Part shown: positions 33,607 through 59,903 of the stretch, one piece after another
How the letters are laid out: every line of letters begins with the position of its first letter
Numbering within the stretch: position 1 is the stretch's first letter
Source of the DNA: an uncultured Gemmatimonadales bacterium
Lineage (GTDB): Bacteria; Gemmatimonadota; Gemmatimonadetes; Gemmatimonadales; GWC2-71-9
Direction of reading: 5' to 3'
Assembly: GCA_963717315.1 (NCBI GenBank)
Contig: CAVQWA010000053.1
Span: 18,217-82,216, forward strand
Length of the DNA stretch: 64,000 nucleotides
Program-made: the position numbers and the translations under genes
The notes under the pieces: generated by a model
What the model was told of the DNA's origin: nothing
What the model saw: only the letters and a program-made list of their open reading frames with translations
Database searches by the model: none

Positions 33607-34718
33607 AGGATCACCATCGCGTCGCCGTAGGAGTAGAAGCGGTACCGCTCCCGCACCGCGTGCGCATAGGCATCGAGCGTGCGTCCCCGGCCGAGGAAGG
33701 CGGCCACGAGGAGGAGCAGGGTGGAGCGCGGCAGGTGGAAGTTGGTCACCAGCCGGTCCACCACCCGGAAGCGGTACCCCGGCGCGATGAGCAGCCGGGT
33801 CTCGCCCGGACCGGCGCGCAGGGTGCCGGCTTCCGCCGCCGCACTCTCGAGCGCCCGCACCACGGTTGTCCCCACCGCCCAGACCTTCCCGCCGCGCGCC
33901 CGCGCGGCCGCCACCTGGTCCCCGAGCCCCGCCGGAACCTCGTACCGCTCGGGATGCATCGGGTGGCGGCTCCAGTCATCCTCCTCCACCGGCTTGAAGG
34001 TGCCGGGTCCCACCTCGAGGTCGAGGCGCCCGACGTCCACGCCGCGCGCGCGGATCTCCCGCAGCAGCTCCGGCGTGAAGTGGAGTCCCGCGGTCGGCGC
34101 CGCCACGCTCCCCTCCCGCTCCGCGAAGACGGTCTGGTAGCGGTCCTCGTCCTCGTCGGTGGGCGGGCGGTCGATGTACGGCGGGAGCGGCAGCCGCCCC
34201 GCCACCCGCATCGCGTCGTCCGCACTCCCGCCGACGAACCGCACCCGCCGCTCGCCTTCCTCGAGCACCGCCACCGTCTCCACCTCGATCCCGCCGCCGA
34301 GCGCAATGCGCTTGCCGGGGCGGAGTGCGCTCCCCGGCTTCCCGATCGCGAGCCAGCTTCCGTCCGCTTCCGGGTGGATCAGCAGCACCTCGGCCGGCGC
34401 GCCCGAGGGGCGCGTGCCGAGGAGTCGCGCATGCCGCACCCGCGTCGTGTTGAGGACCAGGAGGTCGCCGGGCGGGAGGAGGGACGGGAGGTCGGAGAAC
34501 ATGAGGTCGCAAAAAGGGGGAGAGGGGAGAGGGGAGGGGGGAGTGGGCCGCCCCGCACCTCTCCCCTCTCCCTTCTCCCCGATCGCGGAGCCGGCCTGTT
34601 CCCGGTGGACCGCCAGCAGCCGGCTCTCCCCCCGCTCCCGCGGGGGATGCTGGGCGATCAGCTCGGGCGGGAGGTGGTAGTCGTAGTCCGCGGTGCGGCG
34701 CGGTCCGTCAGCCGGCAA
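33603..34718 (-). CDS. queA: S-adenosylmethionine:tRNA ribosyltransferase-isomerase, carrying an in-frame repeat-element insertion
   Basis: 371 aa with TTG start. Motifs: [38 protein letters not shown]...[58 protein letters not shown]. Residues [22 protein letters not shown] are encoded by the hairpin repeat at 34516-34580. Confidence 0.88.
34516..34580. repeat. GGGGAGA/TCTCCCC heptamer hairpin element, copy a (intragenic, within queA)
   Basis: G-arm 34516-34547 and C-arm 34556-34580. A 14-bp perfect core pairs GGGAGAGGGGAGAG (34518-34531) with CTCTCCCCTCTCCC (34559-34572). Confidence 0.85.
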
Positions 34719-35736
34719 AGAGCGTGTCCTGCGAGGCGGGCGGCGTGAAGCCGAAGCGCCGGTAGGCGTGCGCGGTGGCGCAGCGGCCCCGCGGGGTGCG
34801 TTCGAGGAAGCCCTGCTGCAGGAGGTAGGGCTCGTAGACCTCCTCGAGCGTGCCGGCGTCTTCCCCGACCGCGGCAGCCACCGTGTTGAGGCCCACCGGC
34901 CCGCCGCCGAACTTCTCGATGATCGTCGTGAGGATCCGGGCGTCCATGTCGTCGAGCCCGAACTCGTCCACGTTGAGCCGGGCCAGCGCCTCCCGTGCCA
35001 CGGCGACGGTGATCCGGCCGTCGGCCTTCACCTGGGCGTAGTCCCGCACCCGGCGGAGCAGCCGGTTCGCCACCCGCGGCGTGCCCCGGCTCCGGCGCGC
35101 GATCTCGAGCGCCCCCTCGGCCTCGAGCGGCGCCTGCAGGAGCGCCGCCGAGCGGGTCACGATCCGCAGGAGGTCCTCCGGCGGATAGAAGCCGAGCCGC
35201 TCGACCAGGCCGAAGCGCGCGCGCATCGGTGGCGTCAGCAGCCCGAAGCGCGTCGTGGCGCCGACCAGCGTGAAGCGCTCCAGCGCCATCGGCACCGTCT
35301 GCGCATTCGGCCCGTCGGCCAGCCGCACGTCCACCCGGAAGTCCTCCATCGCAGGGTAGAGGTATTCCTCGAGGGCGGGGCGGAGGCGGTGGATCTCGTC
35401 GATGAAGAGGACATCGCCGGGGCCGAGGCCGGTGAGCATGCCCACCAGGTCCCCGGGGCGCTCGAGCACCGGACCGGAGGTGGACCGGAACTGGGTCCCC
35501 ATCTCGCGCGCGAGAAGCTGTGCGAGCGTGGTCTTCCCGAGGCCCGGCGGTCCGAAGAAGAGGACGTGGTCGAGCGCCTCGCCCCGCTGCCGCGCCGCGT
35601 CGATGGCGATCTGGAGCGAGGTGCGCACCTGCTCCTGGCCCACGAACTCCTCGAGGCGCGACGGCCGGAGGGTCGCCTCGGGCGCGGACTCGTCCGGCAG
35701 CGCGTCAGGGGTGGTGATCTCGACCCGCGACGTCAC
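34708..35736 (-). CDS. ruvB: Holliday junction branch-migration ATPase RuvB
   Basis: 342 aa with GTG start preceded by AGGAG. Motifs: [25 protein letters not shown], and a winged-helix C-terminus. Confidence 0.94.
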
Positions 35737-35746
35737 TCGGCACTCC

Positions 35747-35923
35747 TCATGAGGCCAGCCGTGCCTCCCACCTCACCGGGCGGCTGGCGGGCGCGATGAT
35801 GTGGGCGGTGTGGCAGGAGACGCAGGAGTCGGTGACCTGCGTGGCGTTGAGCGGGACGAGGCGGCGGTTGGTGACGCCGCAGCGGGTGCAGTTCCACTCG
35901 GCGGTCCGGGCCACGACGGTCAT
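35747..35923 (-). CDS. 58-aa zinc-ribbon protein (CxxC-x18-CxxC) between ruvA and ruvB
   Basis: Not in the ORF track because it is under 60 aa. Hand translation: [60 protein letters not shown] at nearly all third positions. The ATG overlaps the ruvA stop (TGATG). The ORF ends 10 nt before the ruvB GTG and contains the ruvB RBS. Confidence 0.6.
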
Positions 35924-57960: not shown

Positions 57961-59208
57961 ATGCTCCGCTTCCGCGCCGACTGGCTGGTGCCCGTGACCG
58001 CCCCGCCCATCCCGGACGGGGCGGTCCTCGTTGCGGCCGGTGGGCGGGTGGCCGCCGCCGGCCCCGACGCGATGGTGCCCCGGCCGCCCGGCGTCCCCGA
58101 GCTCCGGCTCGACGGCGCGGCGCTGCTGCCCGGCCTGGTGAATGCGCACACCCACCTGGAGCTGACCGGACTGGCGGGGCGGGCGGAGGAAGCGGACTTC
58201 GTCGCCTGGATCGGGACCATCCGCCGGCTCAAGGCCGAGCGCGGACCGGAGGAATGCCTGGCGGCGGCGCGGGATGGGATCCGGCAGGGGTGGGCGAGTG
58301 GCGTCACGACCGTCGCGGACACCGGCGACAGCGGGGCCGGCCTTCGGGCGCTTGCCGAGCTGGGTGGGAGCGGCGTGGCCTACCAGGAGGTCTTCGGCCC
58401 CGACCCCGCACAGGCGGGGGAGAGCCTCGCGGGACTCGGTGCGGCGGTGGCGGCGCTCCGGCTGGTCCAGACCGGCCGGGCCAGGCTCGGGGTCTCGCCC
58501 CATGCGCCCTACAGCGTGTCGGGCGCGCTGTACGCGGCGGTGGCGCGGCTGGCCGCGGAGGAGGACCTCCCGCTCGCCGTGCACGTCGCCGAGTCGGCGG
58601 CGGAGTCGGCGCTGCTCGCGGACGGGAGCGGCGGGTTCGCGTCGGCGTGGGAACGGCGGGGGATCACTCCGCCGGCGGCCGGCGTGACGCCGGTGGCGTG
58701 GCTGGAGCGGCACGGCGTGCTCGGACCCCGGACCCTCTGCATCCACGCGGTGCGGGTCGACGAGGCGGACATCGGGCGGCTTCGGGCAGCCGGCGCCGGC
58801 GTGGCGCACTGCCCGCTGAGCAACCTCCGCCACGGCCACGGGAGCGCGCCGCTCGCGGCACTGCTCGGCGCCGGCCTCCGGGTGGGGGTGGGCACCGACT
58901 CGGAGGCCAGCGTGGGGCCGGTCGACCTCCTGGCGGAGGCGCGCGCTGCGCGCAGGATCGCCGGCCTTGACGCACGGTCCGCGCTCGCCCTGGCCACCAC
59001 CGGCGCCGCGGCGGCGATCGGGCTGGCCGGGGAGGTGGGGGAGCTCTCGCCCGGCGCCTGGGCCGACGTCGTCGCCGTTGCGCTGCCGTCGGGCGTCGGT
59101 GCGGGTGGCGTCGAGGAAGCGGTGCTCGGCTCGGGCGCGGCGCGGGTGCTCGGCACCTGGGTCGGGGGGCGCCCCGTCTTCCGCCCGGAGGGGGTCGCGA
59201 CGCCGTAG
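57961..59208 (+). CDS. Amidohydrolase-family metallohydrolase (chlorohydrolase/nucleoside deaminase-like)
   Basis: 415 aa. Motifs: PGLVNAHTHLE, HV.ES, H......D, GTDS. Confidence 0.8.
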   Translation: MLRFRADWLVPVTAPPIPDGAVLVAAGGRVAAAGPDAMVPRPPGVPELRLDGAALLPGLVNAHTHLELTGLAGRAEEADFVAWIGTIRRLKAERGPEECLAAARDGIRQGWASGVTTVADTGDSGAGLRALAELGGSGVAYQEVFGPDPAQAGESLAGLGAAVAALRLVQTGRARLGVSPHAPYSVSGALYAAVARLAAEEDLPLAVHVAESAAESALLADGSGGFASAWERRGITPPAAGVTPVAWLERHGVLGPRTLCIHAVRVDEADIGRLRAAGAGVAHCPLSNLRHGHGSAPLAALLGAGLRVGVGTDSEASVGPVDLLAEARAARRIAGLDARSALALATTGAAAAIGLAGEVGELSPGAWADVVAVALPSGVGAGGVEEAVLGSGAARVLGTWVGGRPVFRPEGVATP

Positions 59209-59292
59209 CGCCACGCCGACCCGGCTTGCCGCCGCTCCGGCGCCCGCTTAGCGTACATCATCCACGTCACGAACAGGATCGGGAGCCCCACC

Positions 59293-59841
59293 GTGCGCTG
59301 CCTCGCGCTCAACGCCTCCTTCGAACCGCTGACCCTCGTCCCGGTGCGCCGCGCGCTGCGCCTCGTCATCGAGGGAAAGGCGGAGATCGTCGAGGCGGAC
59401 CGTGACCAGATGGTCCGAAGTGCGCGGCTGCTCCTGCCCAGACCGGCGATCATCCGCCTCGTCCGGTTCGTGCACGTTCCCCGCCGCTTCCGCCGCCAGG
59501 TCACCAACACCTTCCTCTTCGCCCGCGATGAGTACCGCTGCCAGTACTGCGGCCGGCACCAGTTCGAGCTGCGCCACCGCGAGTGCCTGACCCGCGACCA
59601 TCTGGTGCCGGTGAGCCGGGGAGGCGGGAACCTCTGGGGCAACGTGGTCACCGCCTGCTCCAGCTGCAACACGCGGAAGGGGAACCACCTTCCGGAGGAG
59701 TGCGGAATGCACCCGCGGGTGCCCCCGGTCGAGCCGCACTTCGTCCACCTCGCGTGGGCGGTACGCCGCCTCACCGACACCCAGGCGAAGTACATCCGGC
59801 TGTTCTACGGGCCGGCGGCAGTGCGGGCCCTCGGGGGGTGA
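59293..59841 (+). CDS. HNH endonuclease
   Basis: 182 aa with GTG start. Motif: C.YCG.......LT.DH..P.S.GG...W.N.V.AC..CN..KG. Confidence 0.85.
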   Translation: MRCLALNASFEPLTLVPVRRALRLVIEGKAEIVEADRDQMVRSARLLLPRPAIIRLVRFVHVPRRFRRQVTNTFLFARDEYRCQYCGRHQFELRHRECLTRDHLVPVSRGGGNLWGNVVTACSSCNTRKGNHLPEECGMHPRVPPVEPHFVHLAWAVRRLTDTQAKYIRLFYGPAAVRALGG

Positions 59842-59903
59842 GCGGGGAGAGGGGAGACGGGAGCCTCTCTCCCCTCTCCCGTCTCCCCTCTCCCCTCTCC
59901 CGC
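59842..59903. repeat. GGGGAGA/TCTCCCC heptamer hairpin element, copy f
   Basis: Perfect 20-bp stem: GGGGAGAGGGGAGACGGGAG (59844-59863) pairs with CTCCCGTCTCCCCTCTCCCC (59876-59895). A C interrupts one arm and the matching G interrupts the other. It spans exactly from the HNH stop (59841) to the DUF4390 stop (59903). Confidence 0.9.

Follow-up and report, generated by a model that had tools for sequence, protein, structure and literature searches.

What are the paired runs of GGGGAGA and TCTCCCC heptamers that recur along a contig of an uncultured Gemmatimonadales bacterium (CAVQWA010000053.1)? The stretch of DNA analysed, called the window here, is 64 kb long with a G+C content of about 74%, and the nearest named relatives of its QueA protein are Gemmatimonadales metagenome-assembled genomes (MAGs). 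A sequence-only reading of the window had listed six elements, each a run of GGGGAGA followed by a run of TCTCCCC: five compact hairpins (copies a, b, c, e and f) and one split copy (d). All six were found where it had placed them, and a seventh element (1391–1503) had been missed. We favour, with a probability of about 0.6, the reading that these are palindromic insertion elements of the intervening sequence (IVS) type, lying outside ribosomal RNA (rRNA) and acting on RNA through a long stem. Such an element would consist of two complementary arms of tandem 7-nt units, the G-rich arm 5', which would enclose either almost nothing (a, b, c, e, f and 1391–1503) or, in copy d, a gene of the PF05635/S23p family with a short leader.

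The GGGGAGA/TCTCCCC palindromes are a genuine dispersed hairpin repeat family, mostly located at gene ends. In the window, the double heptamer GGGGAGAGGGGAGA with at most one mismatch has 24 matches against 0.22 expected, a count reached in none of 100 shuffles, and all 24 lie within 34.5–59.9 kb. Throughout the window, every polypurine/polypyrimidine tract of at least 17 nt falls in one of the six copies. TRF finds period-7 arrays at every arm (2.1–5.4 copies). The arm lengths differ by whole heptamers (5.4 versus 2.1 units in e; 3.9 units in the right arm of c), which bears out the earlier claim that arms vary in 7-nt steps. The RNA folds of the copies have energies of −39 to −65 kcal/mol (z −2.1 to −5.5, both strands), well below those of shuffled sequences. 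Nor is the motif limited to the window, the outcome named by the earlier reading as speaking against a family: similar GGGGAGA hairpins are found in further Gemmatimonadales MAGs (L017, L027, L050 and L063). QueA orthologues free of the insertion and HerA 3' ends free of the element exist, in agreement with the claim that the copies behave as dispersed repeats or insertions.

Copy d proved to be no broken copy: its two arms enclose a PF05635 gene. In gene orientation, on the minus strand, a 5' arm (47062–47094; GGGGAGA GGGGAGG GGGGAGA GGGGAGG GGG) is followed by a leader of about 75 nt (46988–47061), conserved in part at its orthologues in L150 and L151, by the gene itself (46631–46987), and by a 3' arm (46589–46626) that is C-rich on the gene's sense strand. 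The gene encodes a 118-aa protein of PF05635 (23S_rRNA_IVP, 'four helix bundle protein', S23p; Pfam 6.9e-17), which matches PDB 2GSC, the structure of XCC0516 of Xanthomonas campestris, at 1.6e-4 and has 825 homologues, mostly in Gemmatimonadales. The interior of the element measures 435 nt. Its 5' arm lies within the last ~23 codons of a glycosyltransferase (Glyco_trans_1_2) gene (47044–48096, minus; Pfam 4.6e-20), the domain of which ends at residue 327 of 350; the glycosyltransferase frame runs through the arm, and the same arrangement is annotated in L152. The 3' arm begins 5 nt past the PF05635 stop codon and ends 3 nt from the stop (46585) of a convergent 306-aa gene. Both the minimum-free-energy and the centroid RNA fold of 46583–47100 (minus) predict that the arms pair around the whole open reading frame (ORF). 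The PF05635 gene is under purifying selection, with a ratio of nonsynonymous to synonymous changes (pN/pS) of 0.10–0.31 against orthologues in independent assemblies and a third-position G+C content (GC3) of 0.84. Consensus scans of the cassette, leader included, found no sigma-70 promoter or terminator, and a terminator scan of 46500–47200 found none. The ORF had no match in a phage collection. A tblastn search with this ORF against 67 pattern-match loci turned up nothing homologous within about 4 kb of the hairpins there, and therefore compact copies do not generally lie beside a PF05635 gene.

The d locus recurs with its arms in the independent assemblies L150 (Logan), L151 (ENA) and L152–154 (NCBI). 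Thus, we give practically no weight to an assembly artefact of a low-complexity region. Against such an artefact stand also the GGGGAGA hairpins of the other Gemmatimonadales MAGs, the intact reading frame of queA through copy a and the occurrence of the same architecture in finished Nostoc, Xanthomonas and Azospirillum replicons. The one point in its favour is that homologous PF05635 genes are often found on very short contigs, so that assemblers do break near repeats. Many of the Gemmatimonadales homologues sit on contigs of only 500–1000 bp, suggesting that the repeat arms are where short-read assemblies break.

PF05635 loci in five phyla share the arms-gene-arms layout, which is also that of a genuine 23S rRNA IVS. 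Short-period tandem-repeat arms were found at 21 of 21 independent PF05635 loci from Gemmatimonadota, Xanthomonadales, Cyanobacteria, Bacteroidota and the Azospirillum 23S rRNA IVS, and at 19 of these 21 complementary arms enclose the gene. Every PF05635 gene inspected in Gemmatimonadota has arms, with a unit particular to the locus: GGGGAGA (L150 and L151) or GGGGAGC (L152–154) at the d locus, CGGTGAG/CTTACCG in L155, (GACGTGA)17 ... (TCACGTC)3 in L071 and GAAGTAA/TTACTTC in L156, as well as 21-nt units in L160 and 8-nt units in Gemmatirosa L174. In the 1.3 Mb of loci covered at that stage, a PF05635 gene lies inside every pair of heptamer arrays spaced 400–800 nt apart, and all PF05635 genes found there have arms.

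In X. arboricola, the PF05635 gene lies between accB and accC, and its GGGAATC-type arms abut the accB stop codon and the accC ATG. Of 30 positions in these arms, 26 pair, and the mismatches recur at every seventh base. The same accB-PF05635-accC locus exists in Rhodanobacter with GGGATTC/GAATCCC arms. The Xanthomonadales 3' arm runs directly into the accC ATG, with no room for a Shine-Dalgarno sequence. For X. campestris, the supplement of Rehm et al. (2015) places GGGAATC repeat #15 at 6 nt after accB, overlapping the annotated start of XCC0516 (PMC4692102). Cyanobacterial plasmids yielded 12 more loci, 10 of which have complementary arms enclosing the gene; of the other two, one has lost its upstream side to an insertion sequence (IS) element and one has direct arrays. 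L185 at first appeared to be negative, and its arms were found by an automated scan. The Riemerella locus (L184, Bacteroidota) has TTCAAGG/ACCTTGA arms. In Azospirillum lipoferum (L183/L195), the PF05635 ORF lies within the large-subunit rRNA match at 1684–4882 (Rfam). This cassette, being inside the 23S rRNA gene, is therefore a true IVS, and its closing stem is composed of CAGAGGA/CGGAGGA heptamers (z −10.6).

PF05635 cassettes were also seen in tight operons, namely cas6-cas4 (Anabaena and Pseudanabaena), cmr2-cmr3 (Picosynechococcus), nrdB-nrdA (Nostoc) and accB-accC (Xanthomonas and Rhodanobacter); the loci are L176, L181, L178, L175, L169 and L171. Plasmids gamma and alpha of Nostoc PCC 7120 (L187 and L188) carry the same PF05635 gene, each directly downstream of an ISL3 transposase gene. 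They retain the 3' arm only (CTTCTGC/CCTCTGC), and their leader has a repeated ACTTCAAACTT that is also found in the Stanieria cassette L191.

That arms and gene arrive together can be seen in two Nostoc plasmids (L179 and L193) that have a three-gene operon in common with 89–92% identity. One plasmid has TAG-GTT-ATG as its first spacer and (GGGGAAA)n-PF05635-(TTTCCCC)n in its second; the other has TAA-TTT-ATG as its second spacer and a different cassette, (TCAGGAG)n-PF05635-(CTTCTGG ATTCTGA), in its first. Comparison of filled with empty sites revealed neither a hairpin at the empty sites nor a target duplication. The arms are therefore part of what was inserted, with the junction of a stop codon and the next gene as the target. 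This pair of plasmids shows that arms and gene enter as a single unit, placed exactly where a stop codon meets the adjacent gene.

Where a contig has both compact and gene-bearing forms, they usually share their unit: GGGGAGA in the window, GACGTGA in L071 (with GACGTGA forms on both sides of one gene), GAAGTGA in L156 and GGGAGTA in Nostoc L182. At orthologous sites, the heptamer unit changes in concert on both arms. The arms of the d locus, 430 nt apart, have GGGGAGA versus GGGGAGC, and those at accB-accC have GGGAATC versus GGGATTC, with both arms changed in each case, which argues for selection on pairing. The case is stronger for arms 430 nt apart than for the compact copies. The mirrored interruptions of the latter, in which the earlier reading had seen conserved pairing, are indeed present; selection for pairing is not a necessary cause of them. 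We rejected it as their sole cause, because arm-to-arm copying explains them equally well. The 3' end of the HerA gene has, across orthologues, GGGGAGA, CGGGAGA, GACGTGA, a plain hairpin or nothing. The elements also have a strict polarity: 845 kb of sequence chosen without regard to polarity gave 30 complementary pairs led by the G-rich arm, none led by the C-rich arm and one tie.

The compact copies, to which no strand is assigned, lie mostly at gene ends. Copy b (38852–38901; −55.4 kcal/mol, z −5.0) has a perfect stem, for which the claimed 21 bp were confirmed (21 nt, 100% complementary). It fills the gap between two convergent stop codons, one ending at 38846 and one starting at 38901; its neighbours are an unknown gene and a GT9 gene. 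Copy c (39950–40006), characterised by sequence, stem and fold analysis, sits between a GT9 heptosyltransferase gene (minus) and a divergent response-regulator/PglZ gene (plus), and its C-rich arm stops 14 nt ahead of the ATG at 40021. Copy e (54398–54458) has (GGGGAGA)5.4 versus about 2 TCTCCCC units and fills the gap from the stop of a HerA-like gene (54397) to the convergent stop of tyrS (54461). The two stop codons pair with each other, TAG with CTA, at the base of its stem. Copy f (59840–59903; −54 kcal/mol, z about −5) takes up the gap from the stop of an HNH gene (59841) to that of a convergent DUF4390 gene (59903). The long stem reported for it extends over 24 nt at 96% complementarity, including the mirrored interruption GAGACGGGAG/CTCCCGTCTC. 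The seventh element (1391–1503) is built from the unit GAAGGTC/GACCTTC, with arms GAGGTCGAAGGTCGAAGGG and CGGACCTTCGACCTTCGGCC, period-7 TRF arrays at 1392–1416 and 1488–1502 and about 70 nt of structured sequence in the middle (RNA fold −71.8 kcal/mol, z −4.5). It sits in the gap from the stop of a sigma-70 gene (1508–2500, minus) to the start of an FAD-binding gene (182–1384, minus), both assigned by Pfam. The placement described earlier was confirmed: b, d, e and f are 0–7 nt from stop codons, one copy is in a divergent promoter region and one is in a coding region, the latter making one intragenic copy of seven. Proximity to stop codons was also observed for elements in L027, L036, L063 and L073.

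Five of the six stop codons adjoining b, e and f are TAG (38844–38846, 38901–38903, 54395–54397, 54461–54463 and 59903–59905). TGA is usually the commonest stop codon in genomes of such high G+C content, which makes the excess of TAG look odd.

The sequence-only reading had called the elements terminator-like. In the canonical intrinsic sense this is rejected: the hairpin is present and a U-tract is absent, since b, e and f are not followed by a T-run on one strand or the other. A T5 follows the stem only at copy a, on the minus strand, within queA. A wider version of the idea, which we consider possible and rather improbable, is that the host itself makes terminator or 3'-end hairpins, that these are lengthened by heptamer slippage, and that the PF05635 gene is an unrelated passenger favouring hairpin centres. 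Such an origin would agree with the abutment of most compact copies on convergent stops (b, e and f, and those in L027, L036, L063 and L073), with the retention of orthologous positions across 67–86% protein identity and with the 7-nt steps in arm length. It is also favoured by Gemmatirosa L174, where a complete compact hairpin stands beside the gene and an extra C-rich arm follows the gene. On the other hand, the empty Nostoc sites are 3-nt spacers with no hairpin, so the arms arrived with the gene. Moreover, a terminator would be harmful in the divergent promoter region (c) and in frame in queA and in a major facilitator superfamily (MFS) gene, and a strict G-first polarity is not expected from local slippage alone. 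Gene ends of the window also carry ordinary G+C-rich hairpins with no heptamer period (23108–23144 and 38378–38413, which tell against host-made heptamers, and 20888–20916); the heptamer elements are therefore not the sole end-of-gene hairpins.

Copy a (34516–34580; −64.6 kcal/mol, z −5.5) is the intragenic one. Its host is queA (33603–34718, minus; Pfam Queuosine_synth 8.8e-116), the product of which is S-adenosylmethionine:tRNA ribosyltransferase-isomerase. The hairpin lies in frame and is translated as GEKGEGRG...PSPLPSPP. In an AlphaFold2 model, the insert is a disordered loop (residues 43–64; predicted local distance difference test below 50) between two β-strands. QueA orthologues of 346–350 aa have no insert, and those of 371–380 aa carry one at the same site, for which the unit is GGGGAGA in the window versus GGTGAGC in L068 and L069. 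The point after LLVVxR in QueA (window 34470–34640; alignment A1, columns 40–110) is an insertion hot spot in Gemmatimonadales. Inserts there are either absent, heptamer hairpins of 20–34 aa with different units, or unrelated sequences of at least 50 aa (P0030 and P0069). A second translated hairpin was observed in L156 (15074–15139), where a compact GGGAAGC hairpin lies in frame within an MFS transporter gene (RGEAGSGKGEADNPFPLPASPFP). A further point for annotation is that the hairpins give real proteins GERG...SPLP inserts, in frame, as well as C-terminal tails.

The IVS-type reading suggests a simple course of events. When transcribed from either direction, the arms would form a G+C-rich double-stranded stem of 15–30 bp. 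Between convergent genes, this stem may halt or slow transcription and shield 3' ends. In the gene-bearing form, it would draw the host sequences on its two sides together and give RNase III a substrate, as has been shown for rRNA IVSs. With the flanks joined in this way and an RNase III substrate provided, an insertion could therefore be tolerated within operons or rRNA, and even inside proteins, in frame. The arms would lengthen and shorten by 7 nt at a time through replication slippage, and their complementarity may be kept by selection on the stem, by arm-to-arm template switching (in compact copies) or by both. The role of the stem would then be that of a terminator, an RNase III site or an insulator.

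Several points weigh against this reading. Termination, processing and RNase III cleavage at the stems are all steps that we infer. To our knowledge, stems with no U-tract are not known to terminate transcription in Gemmatimonadota, and we know of no catalytic activity for the 118-aa four-helix bundle. A mobility enzyme was not found among the ~43 ORFs of the window that were scanned. Some compact hairpins have a unit different from that of the cassette, for example L156 15074–15139 (GGGAAGC) and window 1391–1503. ORF-less interiors (the 55–165 nt centres of the Nostoc pairs and window 1417–1488) contained no PF05635 remnants (all E > 1), and therefore descent of compact from gene-bearing forms by deletion is unsupported and unproven. 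The arms of the L069 orthologue of copy b do not match, (GGGGAAC)3 versus (CTCCCCT)3; a single arm can therefore be homogenised faster than the two arms are matched to each other, and pairing is not always kept. The arrays around the gene in L181 are direct, not inverted. Finally, the PF05635 loci are a convenience sample of metagenome contigs and plasmids, not a whole-genome census.

A bolder proposal, which we put forward tentatively and regard as doubtful, is that PF05635/S23p cassettes with heptamer arms constitute one unrecognised class of selfish insertion elements in at least five phyla, with rRNA, tight operons, convergent gene ends and coding sequences as targets. The STRR, GGGAATC and GGGGAGA repeats would be its arms and ORF-less derivatives. 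The pentameric PF05635 protein, a homologue of Avd, the accessory protein of diversity-generating retroelements, would be the trans partner that recognises or propagates the lineage-specific 7-nt unit.

STRR heptanucleotide repeats of heterocystous cyanobacteria were reportedly described by Mazel and co-workers in 1990. We know of no function for STRR and the G-rich heptamers, and of no function or mode of spread for the IVSs and the abundant S23p family. The heptanucleotide repeats (STRR in 1990, Xanthomonas and Nostoc in 2015) and the IVS/S23p family would thus be two loose ends joined into one problem. If the arms-gene-arms unit is the element that both have in common, the PF05635 family gains a concrete candidate for a nucleic-acid partner. 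This unit would also explain how PF05635 genes can lie inside essential operons without breaking them and why assemblies break around these genes, and it would provide a natural, very compact insertion module closed by a stem.

Other palindromes were met in the course of the analysis. Many genome-scan matches (Thiomargarita, Hymenobacter, Planctomycetes, Devosia and others) were not counted, as they belong to a different nested palindrome that merely contains GGGGAGAGGGG. It has the form CCCTCACCCCCGGCCCCTCTCCC..GGGGAGAGGGGAG..loop..CTCCCCTCTCCCC..GGGAGAGGGGCCGGGGGTGAGGG, and only the GGGGAGAGGGG core is common to it and the window elements. Its hosts are Thiomargarita, Hymenobacter, Prevotellaceae, Planctomycetes, Rhodobacterales, Cupriavidus and Devosia (L008, L015, L016, L025, L042, L047, L061, L011, L021, L030, L052, L058, L065, L019, L020, L028, L059 and L066). 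A planctomycetotal contig (L023, 2483–2599) contains a 42-nt tandem array, each unit of which is a small GGGGAGAGGGGAG/CTCCCCTCTCCCC hairpin followed by CTGAGTACA. In the Gemmatimonadales contig L069, long intergenic hairpins of irregular CCAAGGG/CAAGGGG-like units are found at 4120–4260 and 10160–10270, and these represent another short-period hairpin family in the same lineage.

Among known systems, repetitive extragenic palindromes (REP/BIME) and REPINs (Bertels & Rainey 2011, PMC3116915) resemble the window elements in being short, dispersed extragenic palindromes at gene ends. REP-RAYT systems likewise have a gene between inverted repeat copies, and roles in termination and mRNA stability have been proposed for them. 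The sequence-only reading had called the family REP-like, or like MITEs, the miniature transposable elements with inverted repeats. A family of this kind, mobilised in trans by a RAYT or other transposase encoded elsewhere in the genome, would account for dispersed, mostly intergenic palindromes with one unit per genome, for presence and absence varying among relatives, and for a gene between inverted copies that recalls RAYT genes flanked by REPs. Nevertheless, we judge it quite improbable, and the label was not upheld. The flanked gene encodes a four-helix bundle of PF05635 and not a Y1 transposase. No transposase, RAYT, integrase or reverse transcriptase was found among the ~43 ORFs scanned in the 64 kb of the genome inspected. 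Unlike MITEs, the elements have no target-site duplication, either as direct repeats flanking a, b, e and f (by inspection) or at the filled Nostoc sites. Their arms are tandem arrays of variable copy number rather than a fixed palindrome or terminal sequence, and related genomes carry different units at one and the same site.

Rickettsia palindromic elements (RPEs) insert in frame into protein genes and are translated as surface loops. The in-frame translated loops of copy a in QueA and of the L156 hairpin in the MFS gene are like RPEs in effect. Unlike RPEs, the window elements are heptamer-periodic, gene-associated and mostly intergenic, and no kinship in sequence is expected. The TAACTGA heptamers of Beggiatoaceae, Cyanobacteria and Bacteroidetes are direct repeats, with one indirect case among ~170 (MacGregor 2015, PMC4679880). 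Like the window elements, they are intergenic 7-nt tandem arrays, which abut start codons and are patchily distributed across phyla rich in PF05635 genes. Unlike the window pairs, they are almost always direct, and no PF05635 link was reported for them (PMC4679880).

A heptamer construction, called unusual in the sequence-only reading, is not unprecedented, since G-rich heptamer arrays were already described in Xanthomonas (GGGAATC) and Nostoc (GGGGA(C/T)T) by Rehm et al. (2015, PLoS One; PMC4692102), who favoured a G-quadruplex (G4) reading and named no function. Each Xanthomonas genome has 70–75 convergent inverted heptamer pairs near stop codons, able to form stem-loops. These heptamers have a strong intergenic bias and vary widely in length and sequence between related species at the same sites (PMC4692102). 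The window elements share with them the tandem, heterogeneous 7-nt units in variable copy number (at least two per array), the mostly intergenic location close to the stop codon of a neighbouring ORF, and the convergent, stem-loop-capable arrangement (with 30 pairs G-first). They differ in their unit (GGGGAGA), in their host (Gemmatimonadales), in that nearly all arrays are paired, and in the link to PF05635, which went unnoted in the 2015 account even though repeat #15 falls on the XCC0516 start (PMC4692102). The window elements are the Gemmatimonadales version of heptamer inverted pairs, and such pairs, taken with the PF05635 cassette, have the look of IVS-type insertion elements outside rRNA.

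Could these be G4 regulatory repeats, in which the G-rich arm folds in DNA or RNA and the hairpin is secondary? GGGGAGA has a G-tract and is G4-capable by sequence, every G-rich arm in the window has at least four runs of G3–6, and oligonucleotides of the types (GGGAATC)n and (GGGGAYT)n fold into G4 in vitro (PMC4692102). However, GACGTGA, GGTGAGC, CGGTGAG, GAAGTGA, GAAGGTC, TCAGGAG, ACAGGTG and AAAAGCT, which occupy orthologous sites (as do the first two) or elements of the same build, are not G4-capable, and these elements still keep the 7-nt period and the arm complementarity. G4 formation was therefore rejected as a property common to all elements: it does not generalise because many units have no G-tract, and we consider this account very unlikely.

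The IVSs of 23S rRNA are, along with the Xanthomonas and Nostoc heptamers, the closest precedents. In full-text searches, with subscription journals largely outside their reach, we found no paper that connects PF05635/S23p with heptamer repeats or notes a heptamer build of IVS stems. In Coxiella, the IVS that RNase III excises bears a PF05635 ORF and has a terminal stem of 28 bp, as set out by Warrier et al. (2016, PMC4990558), who also review IVSs with S23p ORFs. Such processing is shown for rRNA IVSs only. These IVSs are inserted in helix 9, 25 or 45 of 23S rRNA. The window elements lie between or inside protein-coding genes, copy d being flanked by the glycosyltransferase and 306-aa genes, and an Rfam search of the whole window found no family, including no rRNA. 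In other respects, copy d corresponds to the IVSs of Leptospira and Coxiella, as it has a PF05635 ORF within complementary termini that are predicted to form a long stem. Both groups include ORF-bearing and ORF-less forms (the latter in Salmonella and others, for rRNA) and have a sporadic, insertion-like distribution, and the 23S IVS of Azospirillum, like d, has arms made of heptamer repeats.

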